DNA of 60,916 bases from an uncultured Clostridiaceae bacterium (GTDB taxonomy: Bacteria; Bacillota; Clostridia; Lutisporales; Lutisporaceae). Within the stretch, counting starts at the first letter, position 1, and every line of letters starts with the position of its first letter. The position numbers and the translations under genes were made by a program. Location of the stretch: assembly GCA_964619815.1 (NCBI GenBank), contig CAZUGK010000001.1, positions 22,878 to 83,793 of the forward strand, given 5' to 3'. Shown one piece after another: positions 26,006-48,257 of this stretch. Under the pieces are notes generated by a model. The model was not told the DNA's origin. It ran no database searches and saw only the letters and a list, made by a program, of their open reading frames with translations.

Positions 26006-26758
26006 ATGAATCAATTTTCAAGAACAGAATTATTAATCGGTGAGGATGGAATAGAAAAACTACACAAAAGCACAGTTGCAATTTTCGGCATCGGAGGAGT
26101 TGGTTCATATACTGCCGAGGCGCTTTGCCGAAGCGGGGTAGGAAGACTGGTGCTCATAGATTATGATGATATCTGCCTTACAAATATAAACAGGCAGCTT
26201 CATGCAACCAGAAAAACAGTGGGTAAGCCTAAGGTGGAAGCAATGAGGGATAGGCTTCTGGATATCAATCCTAATGCTGATATTGTCGTGCATAATGAAT
26301 TATATAATGAAGAAACCTCGGATTCACTCCTTCTTCCGGAATATGATTACGTAGTAGATGCCATAGACATGGTCACTTCGAAAATTAACCTTATAGTGAA
26401 GTGTATTGAAATGAACATACCTGTAATAAGCTGCATGGGAGCAGGCAACAAGCTTGACCCAACAAAGCTGGAGATTACTGATATTTACAAGACCTCAGTG
26501 TGCCCCCTTGCCAAGGTGATGAGGTATGAGCTGCGCAAAAGAGGGGTTAAGAAGCTGAAGGTGGTGTATTCCAAGGAGGAGCCATTGACTCCTATGAAGG
26601 ATGTTGCCGATTGCAAGACCAACTGTATTTGCAGCAACAAAGAAAAAGCGAACTGTACAAAAAGAAGGCAGATACCAGGCAGTACATCCTTTGTTCCGCC
26701 TGCCGCAGGACTTGCAATTGCATCAGCTGTAGTAAGGGATATGTTGGGTGTGGAGTAG
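26006..26758 (+). CDS. tcdA: tRNA threonylcarbamoyladenosine dehydratase (ThiF/E1-like, TcdA/CsdL type)
   Basis: FSRTELLIGEDG...VAIFGIGGVGS...LIDYDDICLTNINRQ...VVDAID, ThiF-family Rossmann fold. Confidence 0.8.
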   Translation: MNQFSRTELLIGEDGIEKLHKSTVAIFGIGGVGSYTAEALCRSGVGRLVLIDYDDICLTNINRQLHATRKTVGKPKVEAMRDRLLDINPNADIVVHNELYNEETSDSLLLPEYDYVVDAIDMVTSKINLIVKCIEMNIPVISCMGAGNKLDPTKLEITDIYKTSVCPLAKVMRYELRKRGVKKLKVVYSKEEPLTPMKDVADCKTNCICSNKEKANCTKRRQIPGSTSFVPPAAGLAIASAVVRDMLGVE

Positions 26759-26766
26759 GCCTTTGG

Positions 26767-26858
26767 GGTCTTGTCACGAGCTACGAGCACCAAGCCGCGC
26801 TTCGAAGTCTTTGCATAAGCACGAGGCACGGGGCACGAAGCCCGAAGCCGGAAAGACT
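26767..26858 (+). repeat. Heptamer-repeat element with CTTCGAAG core (copy B, shorter/degenerate)
   Basis: Core CGCTTCGAAGTCTTTGCATAAGC (26798-26820) matches the copy C core at 18 of 23 positions by my count. It is followed by ACGAGGC ACGGGGC ACGAAGC CCGAAGC CGGAAAG (26821-26855). AAGTCTTT (26805-26812) pairs with AAAGACTT (26852-26859). Confidence 0.6.
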
Positions 26859-26901
26859 TTAAAGAAAGATGTTATTTATAAATGCAAAAGACAAAAAACA
26901 G

Positions 26902-26955
26902 TTGACAAAATGCATAAGTGTTATATAATAGTATTAGAATACCGGTACGGGGTAT
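26902..26955 (+). promoter_or_regulatory. Sigma-A-type promoter plus CsoR-type operator
   Basis: TTGACA (26902-26907), 16 nt, TATAAT (26924-26929). Immediately downstream is ATACCGGTACGGGGTAT (26939-26955), a GC-tract pseudo-palindrome of the ATACC-N-GGTAT kind bound by CsoR-family repressors. Confidence 0.6.
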
Positions 26956-26968
26956 AGGAGGCGATGAG

Positions 26969-27241
26969 TTGGATAATAAGGAAATAAGTAAAGAGGATAT
27001 TATCAATAGAATGAAAAAGATTGAAGGGCAGGCAAAAGGAATTCAGAAAATGATTGAAGAAGACAAGTGCTGCGGCGACATTATGGTTCAAATATCTGCC
27101 ATAAGATCTGCAATAAACCGTGTCGGGGGACTCATCATGGACAGGTATATAAAAGAGTGCCTGAAGGAATCACTGAAGGAGAACAAGAGTGAGGAAAGCA
27201 TCGAGGAAGTTATAGAGACTATTGTAAAATACGTTAAGTAA
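26969..27241 (+). CDS. CsoR/RcnR-family (DUF156) metal- or thiol-sensing repressor
   Basis: INRMKKIEGQAKGIQKMIEEDKCCGDIMVQISAIRSAINRVG is the family signature. TTG 26969 is correctly spaced from AGGAGG, so the ORF-track start at 26918 is rejected. Confidence 0.8.
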   Translation: MDNKEISKEDIINRMKKIEGQAKGIQKMIEEDKCCGDIMVQISAIRSAINRVGGLIMDRYIKECLKESLKENKSEESIEEVIETIVKYVK

Positions 27242-27259
27242 AAGGGCAGGTACTAATCT

Positions 27260-27700
27260 ATGAAAGAAGTTGGAAAGGTAATAAAAATAGAAGACAACCA
27301 GGCAACGATACTGATTAAGAGAGGCACAGCCTGAGGTGAGTGCGGGAACTGCCAGGTAGGCAGGGAAAAACTCGAAATGGTTATGATTGCAGACAACAAT
27401 GTGCGGGCAGAAGTAGGGGATGAAGTAGAAATAGACTTGGAAAACATGAATTTCATGACTGCGATACTTATTGCTTATGGTTTTCCGCTTCTTGCACTGA
27501 TGGCCGGCATATTTGGCGGTTATTACGGTTTATTGGCATTTGGTATGAGCGACAATACGGCTCAAGCCCTGGGTGCAATAATTGGAATTGTTGCATTGGC
27601 AGCTTCCTATGCAGTGATAAAGTTCAATGATGAAGCAATCAAAAAAATGAAAAAATTCAAGCCTGTCATAGTAGGAATAAAAACAAAAGACAACATATAA
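27260..27700 (+). CDS. RseC/MucC-family (SoxR-reducing-system type) membrane protein with in-frame TGA at 27332-27334 (candidate Sec codon, otherwise a pseudogene)
   Basis: ATG 27260 gives MKEVGKVIKIEDNQATILIKRGTA, then TGA, then in the same frame GECGNCQVGREKLEMVMIADNNVRAEVGDEVEIDLE followed by 2 TM segments. The ORF track reports only the part from Met 27377. Hairpin CTGCC-AGGTA-GGCAG at 27349-27363. Confidence 0.6.
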
Positions 27701-27814
27701 TGGTAATGCTGCATTTGTTTAATAATTTATAAATTTTTAAAATGGATAGAATAAAAGTATGCAGCAAATCTGTATATGTAAGCATTTAACAGATTTTGAA
27801 AGGAGTATTTGTAA

Positions 27815-28141
27815 GTGAGTAAAAACGTTCAAATAGTAAATCAACAGAATTTTGACAGTGAGGTATTGAAGTCCGATAAACCGGTATTGGTCGATTTTTG
27901 GGCGGCATGGTGCGGCCCCTGCAGGATGGTATCTCCTGTAATAGACCAACTGGCGGATGAATATGAGGGAAAGCTGAAAATTGCAAAGGTTAATGTGGAT
28001 GAAAATCCTGAGCTGGCTGGTAAGTATGATATAATGAGTATCCCGTCAGTATTCCTGTTCAATAATGGAAGCAAAGTGGACGGAATAATTGGAGCAAGAC
28101 CGAAGCAAGCATTTGATGAGATGTTGAGAAAGCATGTATAA
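27815..28141 (+). CDS. trxA: Thioredoxin
   Basis: 108 aa. [15 protein letters not shown] active site. GTG start after GAAAGGAG. Confidence 0.92.
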
Positions 28142-28145
28142 TTAA

Positions 28146-28180
28146 TAGAAGCACTTATAAGCGACTTATAAGTGCTTCTA
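28146..28180 (+). terminator. Terminator hairpin after trxA
   Basis: TAGAAGCACTTATAAG (28146-28161) / CTTATAAGTGCTTCTA (28165-28180), perfect 16-bp stem with a 3-nt loop. Confidence 0.8.
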
Positions 28181-28326
28181 ATACTTTTATAAGAAAATGT
28201 TATAATTTAAAGCGACTATTTAGCTTTAATGTTATTTACTTCTATGTTATTATTAAGTTTAAATCGTTGTTTAACTATTATCCAATAAGAAATAATATAA
28301 GTAAATCTATGCAGGAGGAATTTGAT

Positions 28327-29568
28327 ATGAGACTTAACAATATAAAAGCTTATGATGCAGAAATTGCAGATGCGATTCTAAAGGAGCTTGGCAGAGAAAG
28401 AGACAAAATAGAGCTGATAGCATCAGAAAATTTTACGTCACCTACAGTAATGGATACGCTCGGAACGGTTCTTACAAACAAATATGCAGAGGGATATCCG
28501 GGCAAAAGATACTATGGAGGCTGTGAATACGTAGATATTGTTGAGAATCTTGCAAGAGAAAGGTTAAAGGCTTTATTTGGTGCAGACCATGCAAATGTTC
28601 AGCCTCATTCAGGGTCTAGTGCGAACGAGGCGGTTTACTTTACAGTACTGGAGCCGGGAGATGTTGTAATGGGTATGGATCTGTCCCATGGAGGGCACCT
28701 TACCCATGGAAGCCCTGTCAACATGTCGGGAAAGTATTTTAAATTTGTTCATTATGGTGTGTCAAAAGATACAGGGAGAATTGACTATGACAATGTAAGG
28801 GCTATTGCCAAGGAAAATAAGCCAAAGCTTATTGTGGCAGGAGCAAGTGCATACCCCAGGAGTATAGATTTTAAAGCCTTCAAAGAGATAGCCGATGAAG
28901 TCGGAGCATTGTTTATGGTGGATATGGCACATATTGCAGGGATTGTAGCGGTGGGGCTGCACCAGAGTCCTGTACCCTATGCTGATTTTGTAACAACTAC
29001 AACACACAAAACCTTAAGGGGACCCAGGGGTGGAGCAATTCTCTGCAAGCAGGAATATGCCAAAGCAATAGACAAGTCGATTTTCCCGGGAATGCAGGGC
29101 GGTCCTCTGATGAACACCATTGCAGCCAAAGCAGTATGCTTCAAGGAAGCGATGAGTGCAGAGTACAAGGAGTATATAAAGCAGGTACTGAAGAATGCTT
29201 CAGCTTTAGCAGAGGCATTGACCGCCAAAGGCTTCAACCTGGTTTCGGGAGGTACCGACAATCATTTGATGCTGCTTGACCTTAGAAATAAGAATATAAC
29301 AGGCAAAGATGCAGAGAAACTGCTGGATGACATTGGAATTACAACAAACAAGAATACAATTCCTTTTGACCCGCAGAGCCCATTCATTACAAGCGGATTG
29401 AGAATAGGCACACCTGCTATAACAACAAGAGGCTTCAAGGAAGCTGATATGGAGGAAATAGCCGATATAATCGCTCTGGCTATTACAGAACCGGAATCAA
29501 AAAATGAATGCAGCAGCAGAGTAAAAGCATTGTGCGACAAGCATCCGCTTTATCCGGAATTTAAATAA
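28327..29568 (+). CDS. glyA: Serine hydroxymethyltransferase
   Basis: ATG 28327 lies after [19 protein letters not shown]...[14 protein letters not shown]...[14 protein letters not shown]. Confidence 0.96.
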
Positions 29569-32415: not shown

Positions 32416-33465
32416 ATGAGAAAAGAGAATGTTAAGGTAATTATCTGGGGTTTAGGCGCAATGGGCGGCGGAATCGCTGATTTGCTCCTCAAAAAGAAGG
32501 GCGTGGAGATTGTAGGTGCTGTAGGCAGAGGAGCCAAGATAGGCAAGAGCATGTATGACTACATAAAGACAGAAAGAGGCGACAGACCGGATGTTATAAT
32601 CGGTTCTTATGAGGATGTTATTAAAGAAAAAGCAGCCGATGTTGTTGTACTGTGCACAGACTCCTTTACAAGAAATGCTTTTGACAAGATAAAGTACTGC
32701 TTGGAGAAAAAGATCAATGTTGTATCCAGTGCAGAGGAAATGGCTTATCCTAAAGCTAAGGAACCGGAGCTTACAAAAGAATTGGATAAGATTGCAAAGG
32801 CTAATGGCGTAACAGTTCTCGGAACAGGTATAAATCCTGGACTCATGATGGATCTTCTTGTTGTAGCTTTCACCGGTGCATGTGAAGAAGTTGAGCATGT
32901 TGTTGCAAGGCGTGTAAACAGCTTGTCACCTTTCGGACCTGCAGTTATGGAAGAGCAAGGCATAGGCATTACAGTTGATGAATTCAAGAAGGGTGTTGAA
33001 ACAGGCAAGCTTGCAGGCCATGTAGGTTTTGCAGAATCGATAGGTATGATATCCGATGCTATAGGCTGGAAGCTAAGCGATTTCAATCAGACCATGGAGC
33101 CGATAGTTACTGAAGTTGACAGAAAGTCACCTTACGGCTTTGCAAAAGCAGGCGATGTTGCTGGCTGTGCAATGAAGGGTTACGGATACGTTGGCGGAGA
33201 GCTTAAGATAGAAATGGATCATCCGCAGCAGATAGAACCGCAGCTTGCCGGAGTTGAAACCGGTGATTATATAATAATAAAGGGAACACCTAACGTAAAC
33301 ATGGCCAACAAACCGGAAATACCCGGCGGAATTGGCACAATAGCAATGTGTGTAAATATGATACCTCACGTAATAAATGCAAGGCCCGGACTCAAGACTA
33401 TGATAGACCTTCCGGTACCAAGGGCAATTATGGGCGATATGAGGGAAATGATAGAAGAAGAATAG
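32416..33465 (+). CDS. ord: 2,4-diaminopentanoate dehydrogenase (copy 1)
   Basis: 349 aa. N-terminal Rossmann IIWGLGAMGGGIA, DapB-like fold. Close paralogue of the next gene. Heads the ort/ora cluster, as ord does in known ornithine fermenters. Confidence 0.82.
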   Translation: MRKENVKVIIWGLGAMGGGIADLLLKKKGVEIVGAVGRGAKIGKSMYDYIKTERGDRPDVIIGSYEDVIKEKAADVVVLCTDSFTRNAFDKIKYCLEKKINVVSSAEEMAYPKAKEPELTKELDKIAKANGVTVLGTGINPGLMMDLLVVAFTGACEEVEHVVARRVNSLSPFGPAVMEEQGIGITVDEFKKGVETGKLAGHVGFAESIGMISDAIGWKLSDFNQTMEPIVTEVDRKSPYGFAKAGDVAGCAMKGYGYVGGELKIEMDHPQQIEPQLAGVETGDYIIIKGTPNVNMANKPEIPGGIGTIAMCVNMIPHVINARPGLKTMIDLPVPRAIMGDMREMIEEE

Positions 33466-33619: not shown

Positions 33620-34669
33620 GTGGAAAATGTAAAGGTGGCAATTTGGGGATTTGGAGCAATGGGAAGCGGTATGGCAAGAATGATTCTTAATAAACAGGGA
33701 GTGGACATAGTCGGTGTATGCGATATGCATCCTGGCAGAGTAGGCAAGAGCATTTTTGAGGTTTTGAAAGAGGAAAAAGGCAGCAGACAAGATGTAATTA
33801 TTAAAGCAAATATTGATGAGGTAATATCAGAAGGAAGCTGTGACGTTTGCCTCTGTGCAACTGATTCCTATACTGAAAAAGCATTTCCGAAGCTTGCACA
33901 AGTTCTGAATAAGAAAATCAACGTAATATCAACAGCAGAAGAGATGTCATATCCTCAGGCTCAGAATCCTGAGCTTGCTGCCCAGTTGGATAAAATTGCA
34001 AAGAAAAATGGCGTGACAGTGCTTGGAACAGGTATTAATCCGGGACTTATAATGGATCTTCTGGTCGTATGCCTGACAGGCTGCATGACAAACGTTGAGC
34101 ATATTGAGGCTAAGAGGGTGAACAGTTTGTCACCTTTTGGCCATGCAGTTATGGAAGAGCAGGGAGTAGGTATTACTGTTGATGAATTCGAAAAGGGCGT
34201 AAAAAACGGAACGCTTGCCGGACATGTTGGCTTTGAAGAATCTGTAAGGATGATCGGCGATGCAATCGGCTGGGAGGTAGAAAAATTCGAACAGCAGATG
34301 AAACCAATTGTAACAAAGGTAGACAGAAAATCAACCTATGGGTTTGCAGCAGCCGGCAATGTTGCAGGTGTTAACATGACAGGCCAGGGCTATGTTGACG
34401 GAGAGGTAAAAATAGATATGATACATCCGCAGCAGATTGAGCCTGAAATGGAAGGGACTCAAACCGGAGATTATATTACAATAAAGGGTACTCCGGAGGT
34501 CAATATGTCAATAAAGCCTGAGGTGCAAGGCGGATTAGGCACTATTGCAATGTGCGTCAATATGATTCCTCAGGTTATAAATTCTGAGCCTGGACTTAAG
34601 ACTATGATTGATTTGCCTGTACCAAGAGCAATAATGGGTGATATGAGAAAGTTTATAAAGAAGAAATAA
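33620..34669 (+). CDS. ord: 2,4-diaminopentanoate dehydrogenase (copy 2)
   Basis: 349 aa. Colinear with copy 1 and roughly two-thirds identical by eye. GTG start after AAAAGGAG. Confidence 0.82.
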   Translation: MENVKVAIWGFGAMGSGMARMILNKQGVDIVGVCDMHPGRVGKSIFEVLKEEKGSRQDVIIKANIDEVISEGSCDVCLCATDSYTEKAFPKLAQVLNKKINVISTAEEMSYPQAQNPELAAQLDKIAKKNGVTVLGTGINPGLIMDLLVVCLTGCMTNVEHIEAKRVNSLSPFGHAVMEEQGVGITVDEFEKGVKNGTLAGHVGFEESVRMIGDAIGWEVEKFEQQMKPIVTKVDRKSTYGFAAAGNVAGVNMTGQGYVDGEVKIDMIHPQQIEPEMEGTQTGDYITIKGTPEVNMSIKPEVQGGLGTIAMCVNMIPQVINSEPGLKTMIDLPVPRAIMGDMRKFIKKK

Positions 34670-45525: not shown

Positions 45526-47103
45526 CTACTTAAAGAATTCTCCTATCTTTTTAAACAGGCTGTTATATTTGTATGGTGCATTGCTATCCTCGTCTACTAC
45601 CTCCCCGGCAATCTGTGAGGTCTTTTTTCCCGAACCTGAAAATGCCTGCTTTCCATTTCCTGCTGTCTCAATATTTGCTTCATTTTCCTTGGAGAGCTCA
45701 CCGGATGCTGCATTGACGCCAGGCCTGCCTACGTAGGTAGTTATATGCTCCTGATTTAACAACAGAGTTTCATAATTAGGTAGCTTTTCACTTTTCATGA
45801 ATTTTTCCTTGAAATTGCTTTTTTTAAGCGGTGCCATATCCAAGATGCCATTTAAAGCAGGCTTTGGCTTTGCCGGGAAGAGTTCTTTCATCTCTGCCTC
45901 AGGAGCTTTCTGAACAAAGGTTTTGCTCTCAAGGTTATCAATCCGGCTATTCAATAGTTGGACATTCTCTGACAGACCTTTTATTTCATTAAGAATCTGT
46001 TTCAAATAGTCATTCATTTCAGTTGAAACCTCAGCCTGGGGCTTTTCTTTCTGTTTATCCTCTGCGGCAATTTTTGTTGTATGCTCCAGGGGTCTTAATA
46101 TATTGTAATCCTTGTCAAGTATGAAGTATCCTTTTGATATTGCAATAGAGCCTGTATTTCGTATGCATTTGATCACTCGTATATTGGTTTCTGCTGTTAT
46201 AGGCAGATCAATAGCTTTTTTCCATTTGCCGGAGGAATCCTCAAGGGTGTACTGATGAAAGACATAGTCTTTTATCCATGCAAGCTGCAGGGATTTATCA
46301 TCGGCGTAGAACAAGGGTATTACGCCACCGGTATCAACAAGAGAATTGTTCAGTTCCTTAAAATCTATTTCACTGCTTCCTGAAGACTTGCTCAAGAAAT
46401 GATGAATATTGCTTGCTTCACTTTCATTGGAAAAACTGAGCAGGTTAATTTTCTTATTATGGCTTATAAGTTTAATGGATACCTGGTTTTTGTAAGAAAT
46501 GTTCAGGCTCTTGTGAATCCATGACTTGATTGAGTCATCGAAACAATAATAGTTAATATAGTATAGGGTTCCGTCATACCAAACACTTGCGTAATGTATG
46601 CTGCCGCCTTTTAAGGGAAGTATGGAAAAAGAGCTTTCAATATTCTGCGAGTATATTTCAGATAAGCTGTTCTTTCTCCAGGAATACTCTATATAAGGAA
46701 CTTGCTCGTTAATATTCTTGTGGATGTGATATACGTTGTACATATTGGCGACAGGCAGCTTTTTTGAAAAAAATATATGTATGGAGCCGTTCTGTACTAC
46801 CATATCCATAATATATATATTGGCGCTGTTGTGTTGATTTACAACAGCTTCAAATTTCCAGCCGGAATTGGTATATATAAAAAGCAGAATCCCCTTGTAC
46901 CTGCTGCTGCAAGCAAGATAAACCGCATCATCTGTGTCAATAGCTGCTGCGAAGTCGGCATTGGCCTGGCTTATGAGTATGGTATCCTTTGTATCTCCGG
47001 CGCCGGAAACCTCTCTGTAATATATGGAGGTATCCTTGTAATAGAACAAATACTTGCTGCCTTTAGAATCCTCCAGTATTATTGATGGCTTTATATCTAT
47101 CAT
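45526..47103 (-). CDS. Hypothetical 525-aa protein (beta-rich N-terminal ~340 aa, coiled-coil, low-complexity tail)
   Basis: Good RBS (GGGTGGTG) before ATG. No signal peptide or TM. Central coiled-coil NDYLKQILNEIKGLSENVQLLNSRIDNLESK. No family recognised. Confidence 0.6.
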   Translation of the reverse strand: MIDIKPSIILEDSKGSKYLFYYKDTSIYYREVSGAGDTKDTILISQANADFAAAIDTDDAVYLACSSRYKGILLFIYTNSGWKFEAVVNQHNSANIYIMDMVVQNGSIHIFFSKKLPVANMYNVYHIHKNINEQVPYIEYSWRKNSLSEIYSQNIESSFSILPLKGGSIHYASVWYDGTLYYINYYCFDDSIKSWIHKSLNISYKNQVSIKLISHNKKINLLSFSNESEASNIHHFLSKSSGSSEIDFKELNNSLVDTGGVIPLFYADDKSLQLAWIKDYVFHQYTLEDSSGKWKKAIDLPITAETNIRVIKCIRNTGSIAISKGYFILDKDYNILRPLEHTTKIAAEDKQKEKPQAEVSTEMNDYLKQILNEIKGLSENVQLLNSRIDNLESKTFVQKAPEAEMKELFPAKPKPALNGILDMAPLKKSNFKEKFMKSEKLPNYETLLLNQEHITTYVGRPGVNAASGELSKENEANIETAGNGKQAFSGSGKKTSQIAGEVVDEDSNAPYKYNSLFKKIGEFFK

Positions 47104-47282: not shown

Positions 47283-48047
47283 ATGCAAAACAGTAATATT
47301 ACATTACCAACTGTATTATGTGCAGGAACTACCAAGGTAGAAGTTAATGTAGGCGGAAGAACTGAAAGTAAAGATTTGATATTTGAGTGCATAAAGGTAA
47401 AGAAGGTATTTGACGAATTTGTATTAAGAGATTGTGTTGAAGGCATTAAGTTCAAGGTGTGCGGGGATCCACACGGAGGAGAAATAGTACCGTCCTTGAT
47501 ACTTAGAAACTGCAAGCTTAGCAATGTAGAAATCAAGGATGTATCTTCCAACACGGAAAAAAGGCTCAAGTTCTCGGCAAAGTGCTGCTGTGATGTATTT
47601 GGAAAGGATGAAAGAGGACACATTATAAGGCTCGAGGTGCTTGATGTACCTGAGGGTACTAATCTGTCAGAGGGACCCGGCGGAGAACTTTGCTTTACCT
47701 TCAGTGTGAGAAGAACTTATACCAATGTAACAGAGGAAAACTTTGAAAGATTGCTGCATTTCCTTGATCAGGAAAGATTTGAGCTACAGTGCCTCGGGGA
47801 AGCAATGATTGACGAGGATAATAATAGAACTACCGGTGAAATACTGATTACAAACCTGGGCGCATTCATAGCAATTAAATTTGATGCGGAAGTTCAGCTT
47901 TGTGTTCCTGTGTTGGGCTACTGCGCAATAGAGGAAGATGTTGCACCTATAGAAGTAAACTTCTGCGAAGAGTTTGAATTTGAGGATGTTCCCTCCTTTA
48001 ACCCTCCGCAGCTAGGAATGCCTATTCCTCCATATACAACCGGTTAA
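47283..48047 (+). CDS. Hypothetical Cys-rich 254-aa protein (possible spore coat/exosporium component)
   Basis: RBS AGGAAGGTGAG. 13 Cys including a CCC triplet, an acidic C-terminus, and no signal peptide or TM. No family recognised. Confidence 0.6.
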   Translation: MQNSNITLPTVLCAGTTKVEVNVGGRTESKDLIFECIKVKKVFDEFVLRDCVEGIKFKVCGDPHGGEIVPSLILRNCKLSNVEIKDVSSNTEKRLKFSAKCCCDVFGKDERGHIIRLEVLDVPEGTNLSEGPGGELCFTFSVRRTYTNVTEENFERLLHFLDQERFELQCLGEAMIDEDNNRTTGEILITNLGAFIAIKFDAEVQLCVPVLGYCAIEEDVAPIEVNFCEEFEFEDVPSFNPPQLGMPIPPYTTG

Positions 48048-48056
48048 CAGCCTGCT

Positions 48057-48257
48057 ATGATTAATGGGGATATGAAAATAAAGGAAATCATAAGAAGATA
48101 TCCGTGTGCAAAAAGAGTGTTGAAGCACTATGATTTGCTCTCGGCAGGCTGCAGCTGAGCAGGGTGTCCGGATAGGACACTCAGGCAGGCTGCCGAGTCG
48201 AGAGGAGTCGAATTGAATAAGTTAATGAAATTATTGAATAACAAGATCAAGGGCTAG
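48057..48257 (+). CDS. DUF1858-type small redox-disulfide protein with in-frame TGA at 48156-48158 (candidate Sec codon, otherwise a pseudogene)
   Basis: Not in the ORF track. ATG 48057 gives MINGDMKIKEIIRRYPCAKRVLKHYDLLSAGCS, then TGA, then in the same frame AGCPDRTLRQAAESRGVELNKLMKLLNNKIKG and TAG 48255. Hairpin GGGTGTCC-GGATA-GGACACTC at 48162-48182. Confidence 0.55.

Follow-up and report, generated by a model that had tools for sequence, protein, structure and literature searches.

A probable selenocysteine form of the RseC/MucC membrane protein family encoded between a CsoR-like regulator and thioredoxin in uncultured Clostridia

Does an in-frame TGA inside a small membrane protein gene mark a broken gene, a true stop or a codon for selenocysteine (Sec)? 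This question is raised by positions 27260-27700 of a stretch of contig CAZUGK010000001.1 from an uncultured Clostridiaceae bacterium (60,916 nt, 41% GC; the whole stretch is called the window below). Translation from ATG 27260 gives MKEVGKVIKIEDNQATILIKRGTA, followed by an in-frame TGA at 27332-27334, and the same frame then continues as GECGNCQVGREKLEM and on to TAA 27698-27700, making 146 codons and a stop. An earlier note on this DNA had read the gene as an RseC/MucC-family protein with an in-frame TGA, and every element of that description was found where the note had placed it. With Cys put at codon 25 for the profile search, the full protein matched PF04246 (RseC_MucC) with an E-value of 1.6e-28 and 99.6 bits (cut-off 24.4) over residues 7-138, a match that spans the TGA and covers positions 1-129 of the 130 in the profile. 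The mechanical list of open reading frames (ORFs) contains just 27377..27700 (107 aa), so the note was also right that it reports only the part from Met 27377. We consider 27260-27700 to be a genuine and intact selenoprotein gene with Sec at UGA codon 25, to which we assign a probability of roughly 0.88.

The RseC/MucC family has three conserved N-terminal Cys residues. C28 and C31 are present in the window protein, while codon 25 is UGA, and this family feature is complete only if the UGA is decoded as Sec or Cys. To describe the protein as a whole, we used the AlphaFold2 model of a Cys orthologue that is 83% identical (P0001). The model has a mean predicted local distance difference test score (pLDDT) of 81 and consists of an N-terminal beta-barrel, two long helices and a C-terminal strand, with transmembrane helices at 65-93 and 98-122 (pLDDT > 90). 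By translation, the window protein has the same hydrophobic segments. It is thus predicted to consist of a cytoplasmic barrel domain resembling the oligonucleotide/oligosaccharide-binding (OB) fold, two transmembrane helices and a short C-terminal strand packed back on the barrel. A PDB sequence search with the family profile returned nothing relevant and no relative with a solved structure, and Foldseek found generic OB-fold barrels only (E > 0.001).

For identification of the residue that belongs at codon 25, homologues were searched among 5.8 billion proteins. The close homologues fell into two groups, about 30 full-length proteins (142-147 aa) and about 35 called at 105-114 aa, the latter showing the same truncation as the 107-aa ORF of the window. 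Cys stands at the TGA-aligned position in 34/34 full-length close orthologues, within the motif R-x-T-A-C-G-x-C-G-x-C, and an alignment of 72 family members, reaching down to 27% identity, has no variation at C25, C28 and C31. The TGA therefore replaces the first Cys of the CxxCxxC motif, as had been proposed, and the alignment check that had been set beforehand gave the same answer, with the position also aligning with C26 of E. coli RseC. The DNA of relatives was then taken from reference genomes, from metagenomes and for 14 distinct clusters of truncated proteins. Wherever DNA of a truncated homologue was retrieved (14/14 distinct clusters), it has TGA at the identical codon, preceded by a conserved 24-codon N-terminus. 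Altogether, TGA occupies codon 25 in 20 loci with 19 distinct sequences, which share 59-100% amino acid identity with the window, and the Cys forms have TGC or TGT there, which settles the second check set in advance, the state of this codon in relatives. TGA forms are carried, among others, by GTDB metagenome-assembled genomes CAZNMO01, JAWLHF01 and CAYURW01 and by contigs FWPV01000112 and FWWL01000204, and Cys forms by, for example, JAGOLK01 and DAOLPD01. When the wider family, which includes Fusibacter and Eubacterium, was searched with a profile, truncated forms turned up in this clade only.

The simplest explanation of an in-frame TGA would be a nonsense mutation in a pseudogene, or a sequencing or assembly error at 27332-27334, and public records and gene callers do show it shortened to 107 aa or labelled 'partial'. 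However, the identical TGA recurs in 20 loci that were assembled independently and come from different samples and species-level genomes, and the Logan assembly of run DRR182650 (L100), made apart from the NCBI record with the same protein, gives the same sequence. The TGA-form genes each have exactly one internal stop and zero frameshifts (16 genes examined), and their 24 upstream codons have a ratio of nonsynonymous to synonymous change (pN/pS) of 0.25 at a pS of ~0.6. The TGA in 20 loci, the intact frames and the upstream purifying selection exclude sequencing error, recent nonsense mutation and pseudogene, and we give this explanation practically no chance. The comparative data, namely TGA conservation, coding selection upstream, the Cys alignment and the constrained hairpin described below, come down on the side of the selenoprotein, as the earlier note had suspected.

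Another possibility is that the TGA is a true stop, which separates a 24-residue leader peptide, for example a regulatory upstream ORF, from a second product, a membrane protein of 107 residues that begins at Met40 (27377). Met40 is the start chosen by gene callers, and AGGGA about 10 nt upstream of ATG 27377 is a possible weak ribosome-binding site. Selection in the TGA forms speaks for one continuous protein: pN/pS was 0.25 upstream of the TGA (codons 1-24), 0.16 between the TGA and Met40 (codons 26-39) and 0.27 after that (codons 40-140), at a pS of ~0.6. As the upstream value matches the downstream one, the 24 codons are evidently translated in the same frame as the remainder, and the codons between TGA and Met40 form the most constrained stretch. 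Furthermore, the first part of the RseC Pfam profile aligns to residues 7-24, from which the predicted barrel takes its first two strands, and in half of the clade the 146 residues are encoded without interruption, with Cys. A product starting at Met40 would be without the entire invariant Cys motif, while the Cys-rich N-terminal domain is needed in E. coli (PMC11729352). We regard a leader peptide as highly improbable.

The distribution of the two codon types within the clade was consistent with exchange between Sec and Cys. A neighbour-joining tree with 66 sequences has the TGA and Cys forms intermingled in a single clade. Parsimony requires at least 8 switches, a count that is approximate as the tree was built on a short protein. 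All outgroups in the tree have Cys, and TGA forms make up the basal lineages of the clade. Sec/Cys pairs of this kind are an accepted sign of Cys residues that are redox-active in catalysis.

Decoding of UGA as Sec in bacteria depends on a selenocysteine insertion sequence (SECIS) close behind the codon, and a hairpin was found at the expected place. The hairpin CUGCC-AGGUA-GGCAG (27349-27363) starts at the 15th nt past the TGA and carries GGU in its loop, as had been pointed out before. The minimum free energy fold has a 5-bp lower stem and a 5-bp upper stem (-13 kcal/mol). According to a 2026 review (PMC13188914), the bacterial consensus has an upper stem of 4-16 bp, 16-37 nt from UGA to loop and a minimum free energy of -7.5 kcal/mol or lower; the hairpin agrees with all four criteria of that review, with a loop of 5 nt and G at its position 2, a stem of 5 bp, a spacing of 19 nt and -13 kcal/mol. 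It is coded by C31-Q-V-G-R35, the remainder of the active-site motif. Among 18 TGA forms, the upper helix is paired in 97.8% of cells, compared with 27-49% in slid controls. The 5-bp stem is intact in 14/16 TGA forms versus 6/13 Cys forms, and the mean hairpin energy is -8.1 kcal/mol in the former and -5.3 in the latter. Two changes from TGC to TGT in TGA forms keep the pairing via G-U.

Since the stem was too conserved for a test of covariation to be informative, synonymous-site constraint was analysed in its stead. At the stem codons 30, 31, 34 and 35, mean third-position entropy was 0.40 bits for the TGA forms compared with 0.87 for the Cys forms, while at neighbouring four-fold sites (including the Val codon of the loop) it was 1.31 in TGA forms and 0.79 in Cys forms. 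The stem-forming synonymous sites thus seem to be frozen only with UGA present and relaxed in Cys forms, which is supportive of a decoding element, with the limit that this contrast lacks phylogenetic independence.

That limit is one of several points that weigh against Sec at this codon. The hairpin alone is no better than chance (z = -0.85), and 35/200 dinucleotide shuffles fold equally well. No compensatory covariation was detected in the 18 TGA-form hairpins, which have 0 double changes and covariation no higher than in shuffles. About half of the Cys forms keep the hairpin, whose codons encode the conserved C-Q-V-G-R, and the stem is weakened in two TGA forms, with an internal mismatch in L006 and 4 bp in L007. 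In addition, neither selA, selB, selD nor tRNA-Sec was found in the window, where ARAGORN reported no tRNA and about 40 ORFs were scanned with Pfam. Rfam scans, at the gathering threshold over the window and at an E-value threshold over 27200-27500, gave no relevant match, but this says nothing about a SECIS because Rfam contains no general bacterial SECIS model.

Whether UGA has a different meaning throughout this genome was addressed by stop codon usage. The 52 main ORFs of the window end in TAA (29), TAG (19) or TGA (4), and TGA ends QueH and HemZ, whose family profiles run to that stop, and two further ORFs. Genome-wide reassignment of TGA is thereby ruled out, and read-through at codon 25 must be site-specific because TGA terminates other genes of the window. 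When the window was scanned for other TGA-interrupted genes, only 27332 and 48156 had a credible coding context. The second site, also claimed in the earlier note as a TGA in place of Cys, proved to be real. It lies inside the match to DUF1858 (PF08984, 5.9e-10) of a small gene that matches TIGR03980 as well, and in an approximate alignment it pairs with the first Cys of the C-x-G-C-P motif of a solved DUF1858 protein (PDB 2k53). A hairpin follows at 48162-48182 (8 bp, loop GGAUA, -22.3 kcal/mol, z = -2.45). DUF1858 is a catalogued selenoprotein family (PMC13188914), and a TGA-for-Cys gene of such a family is indirect support for Sec decoding in this organism.

The DUF1858 gene has features of its own. 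Its local motif is C-S-U-A-G-C, unlike the 'CxxU' listed in PMC13188914, and its UGA-to-loop spacing of 11 nt is below the consensus range. A word-index search for homologues of this gene found none, and the ORFs adjoining it, 45526-47103 (- strand, 525 aa) and 47283-48047 (+ strand, 254 aa), have no Pfam or NCBIfam match.

The UGA might still be read through as another amino acid. A variant tRNA that depends on SelB and is charged with Cys could insert Cys, and near-cognate suppression could insert Cys or Trp. Natural recoding of UGA to Cys by Sec-like tRNAs has been reported in some bacteria, and Cys is evidently tolerated at position 25, being present in many orthologues. With no sel genes in the window, the Sec machinery of this genome is also something that we infer. 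Nevertheless, the site-specific nature of the read-through, the conserved hairpin of SECIS type and the second TGA-for-Cys gene in a catalogued selenoprotein family all point to Sec, and leaky suppression would yield mostly truncated product, at odds with the long-term conservation of the TGA. We therefore rate read-through as a residue other than Sec as improbable.

The selenoprotein candidate lies between a CsoR-family regulator and a thioredoxin, as had been observed before and as profile matches for both neighbours now document (Table 1). The promoter hexamers occur at the same upstream distance in nearly all related loci, while the spacer sequence between them varies. An inverted repeat just behind the -10 hexamer was present at its fixed position, under a strict pattern, in 12/15 TGA-form loci, 5/12 close Cys-form loci and 3/5 outgroups, and it is presumably the binding site of the repressor. 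The conserved promoter and repeat amid variable spacers (L001-L065) are, on sequence comparison, the phylogenetic footprint of an autoregulated operon. A scan of 26700-28350 revealed no terminator between rseC and trxA; the sole terminator-like site in this region is the palindrome that closes the operon, which was listed on both strands. The csoR-like/rseC/trxA triad is kept in TGA forms, in Cys forms and in Lutispora-type outgroups, and it is not kept in Eubacterium. Rnf or Rsx domains were found neither among the ORFs of the window nor in the 20-kb syntenic loci.

Table 1 Features of the csoR-like/rseC/trxA operon and of the second gene with TGA in place of Cys (window coordinates).
Feature	Position	Strand	Details
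Sigma-70-type promoter of the csoR-like/rseC/trxA operon	26902..26929	+	TTGACA, 16 nt, TATAAT; 12/12 consensus positions
CsoR-type operator (putative), ATACC-N7-GGTAT (ATACCGGTACGGGGTAT)	26939..26955	+	Inverted repeat just 3' of the -10 hexamer
CsoR-family repressor gene	26969..27241	+	90 aa from TTG 26969; AGGAGG 7 nt upstream; PF02583 6.6e-27
RseC/MucC-family gene, probable selenoprotein	27260..27700	+	146 codons + TAA, proposed Sec codon 25; translation, PF04246, orthologue alignments
In-frame UGA, proposed Sec codon	27332..27334	+	In place of the first Cys of U/C-x2-C-x2-C; equivalent to E. coli RseC C26
Candidate bacterial SECIS	27337..27374	+	Lower stem 27337-41/27370-74, upper stem 27349-53/27359-63, apical loop AGGUA 27354-58
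Thioredoxin gene, co-transcribed partner	27815..28141	+	WCGPC active site; TIGR01068 7.8e-39 (above cut-off), PF00085 1.3e-33
Intrinsic terminator closing the operon	28146..28180	+	16-bp stem, then T-rich tail
DUF1858/TIGR03980 gene, second TGA-for-Cys case	48057-48257	+	66 codons, TGA 48156-48158

The regulator has Cys...Tyr...Cys in contrast to the Cys...His...Cys of copper-sensing CsoR, with Tyr at the position of the His ligand in an alignment to CsoR 4m1p, and the Cu(I)-sensing ligand set Cys-His-Cys is absent from it. Its DRYIKEC motif is kept in all relatives and the Cys-Cys pair in most of them. With Tyr in place of the His ligand, the regulator probably belongs to the thiol-type sensors and not to the copper sensors.

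Based on these characteristics, we propose the following mechanism. The rseC gene is transcribed together with csoR-like and trxA from the strong sigma-70 promoter, which overlaps the CsoR-type operator. The SelB/tRNA-Sec pathway would decode UGA codon 25 as Sec, with the small stem-loop (apical hairpin 27349-27363, loop AGGUA 19 nt past the UGA) as the decoding signal, so that Sec would take the position of the first of three invariant Cys residues (U25-x2-C28-x2-C31). U25 might then act as a redox-active nucleophile: it would form a selenenylsulfide with C28 within U-x-x-C, and the thioredoxin encoded in the same operon would recycle it. The protein could thus be a membrane-anchored selenol/thiol redox relay, which would be induced once the thiol-type CsoR-like repressor is inactivated.

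Provided that the protein is a selenoprotein, we favour this redox relay as its chemistry, at about even odds, because UxxC and UxxCxxC are established redox motifs, thioredoxin is the invariable partner and E. coli RseC can do without any one of its conserved Cys. Both motifs are known from selenoproteins such as GrdB (PMC13188914). Two facts tell against it: the proposed chemistry is drawn solely from the motif and the gene neighbourhood, and the Cys loop is the lowest-confidence part of the AlphaFold2 model (pLDDT ~64). The competing proposal, also conditional on a selenoprotein, is that Sec25 is a ligand of an oxygen-sensitive Fe-S cluster (U25, C28 and C31, possibly across a dimer) for electron transfer or redox sensing, a role already put forward for E. 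coli RseC, and that selenium would tune the potential or stability of the cluster. The equivalent residues of E. coli RseC form a Cys cluster, and its isolated N-terminal domain reconstitutes a 420-nm oxygen-labile chromophore of [4Fe-4S] type (PMC11729352). CxxCxxC is also the classical spacing for Fe-S binding, and predicted selenoproteins with Sec in Fe-S or metal motifs have been catalogued, including a UxxC Fe-S cluster domain protein, 2Fe-2S-binding proteins and HgcB (PMC13188914). Nevertheless, the E. coli cluster formed only upon chemical reconstitution of protein from inclusion bodies solubilised with urea, and mutants with one Cys changed to Ser were functional (PMC11729352). The invariable thioredoxin partner and the thiol-type regulator suit dithiol/selenol chemistry better, and there is no evident fourth ligand among the invariant residues of the 72-sequence alignment. 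The Fe-S cluster is accordingly a real possibility with a chance of less than one half.

The conserved operon with thioredoxin under a thiol-type CsoR-family repressor suggests a dedicated stress-responsive module. We tentatively extend this into a broader and rather doubtful picture: the first Sec form of the RseC/MucC family, either a selenium-ligated Fe-S membrane protein or a selenol redox relay, would belong to a module for reactive sulfur or selenium species or for disulfide stress. A SECIS that largely pre-exists in the Cys forms would explain the repeated Sec/Cys switches in the clade.

The window also contains genes for ornithine fermentation, namely two 2,4-diaminopentanoate dehydrogenases, OrtA, OrtB and OraS/OraE. 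The Stickland-type ornithine pathway claimed in the earlier note is thus present, but its value as support for a selenoprotein is only circumstantial. Glycine and proline reductase genes were not found in the Pfam scans of about 40 ORFs of the window. The two dehydrogenase paralogues stand in tandem (32416-33465 and 33620-34669, both 349 aa and both ~1e-98 to PF19328) upstream of ortA/ortB/oraS/oraE; the related locus L109 has two copies and L101 has one.

Another side observation concerns 26760-26865, about 100 GC-rich nt in the AT-rich intergenic region between a thiF/tcdA-like gene and the operon promoter. This element folds as a long imperfect hairpin (-38.6 kcal/mol, z = -1.5), occurs as a single copy in the window and has no Rfam match. 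It is missing from all related loci except Logan contig L100 of the same organism; an insertion specific to the strain or a terminator-like element are possible identities.

New families of selenoproteins continue to be discovered regularly, and the Sec form of RseC/MucC is apparently an uncatalogued one. Table 1 of PMC13188914, with its 119 families, contains none of RseC, MucC, sigma, SoxR and PF04246. Within an incomplete coverage of the literature, RseC, MucC or PF04246 did not appear in deep-Sep and its supplements, in the text of BSepDB or in further selenoprotein surveys, and no paper was found that pairs 'SoxR reducing system' with selenocysteine. NCBIfam has a generic RseC model only and no Sec-specific one for the family.

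The annotation of the TGA forms in public records reflects the truncation. The NCBI-sourced copies (P0028, P0037, P0047, P0057, P0066 and P0152) are fragments with a length of 107 aa in five cases and 112 aa in one, and the sole named member, HYE11844.1, is a 'SoxR reducing system RseC family protein, partial' in a 'Patescibacteria group bacterium' metagenome-assembled genome (MAG). The TGA-form contig L006 is placed in a 'Caulobacteraceae' MAG. In both cases, Clostridia contigs seem to have been binned wrongly.

The gene is a well-supported addition to the prokaryotic selenoproteome, and the systematic mis-annotation (105-114 aa or 'partial', in dozens of public records) is correctable in pipelines. 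A natural Sec at the position equivalent to C26 would point to the reactive centre of the poorly understood RseC. Furthermore, a minimal SECIS built from conserved active-site codons, combined with repeated switching between Sec and Cys, would make a clean natural example of gain and loss of a Sec codon.

The best-studied relative is RseC of E. coli, encoded in the rpoE-rseABC operon and part of the Rsx/RseC SoxR-reducing system. It belongs to the same PF04246 family and has the same Cys-rich cytoplasmic N-terminal domain and two transmembrane helices. Its residues C26, C29 and C35 are conserved, spatially clustered Cys (Lee et al. 2024, PMC11729352), to which U25, C28 and C31 of the window protein align, and its function as SoxR reducer is lost only upon mutation of two of these Cys (PMC11729352). 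The two proteins share 18% identity, and the window protein scores 30.7 bits against the NF008115 equivalog model, whose cut-off is 184; judged by these scores, it is a family member and not an orthologue of E. coli RseC. They also differ in Cys spacing (x2/x2 in the window, x2/x5 in E. coli), in the first Cys codon, which is UGA in the window, and in gene context, with csoR-like and trxA and no rsx or rnf in the window versus rpoE-rseAB in E. coli.

Another relative is rseC of Clostridium ljungdahlii, which is associated with rnf and reported to be needed for autotrophy (PMC9124969). It encodes a small Firmicutes membrane protein of the RseC family with a link to anaerobic redox and energy metabolism, and it is tied to the RNF complex, whereas the window clade is defined by the csoR-like/rseC/trxA operon. 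The rnf-associated RseC type is not known to have a Sec form.

With the catalogued UxxC and UxxCxxC selenoproteins (GrdB and thioredoxin-fold proteins), the window protein shares a motif with Sec first, Sec/Cys pairs, a bacterial SECIS just past the UGA and a link to thioredoxin, but their fold is unrelated to its OB-like barrel and two transmembrane helices. The DUF1858 gene of the window is likewise small, with TGA at a CxxC-type Cys and a hairpin downstream, and presumably uses the same Sec machinery; its hairpin is stronger and nearer to the UGA (8 bp at 11 nt) than that of rseC (5 bp at 19 nt). The nearest comparison is offered by the Cys orthologues of the clade in Clostridia MAGs (P0001 and P0003, 'SoxR reducing system RseC family protein'), which are 66-83% identical across 146 residues. 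They share the operon, promoter and operator of the window, and many keep the hairpin-forming codons; they differ in having TGC or TGT at codon 25 and relaxed synonymous sites in the stem.

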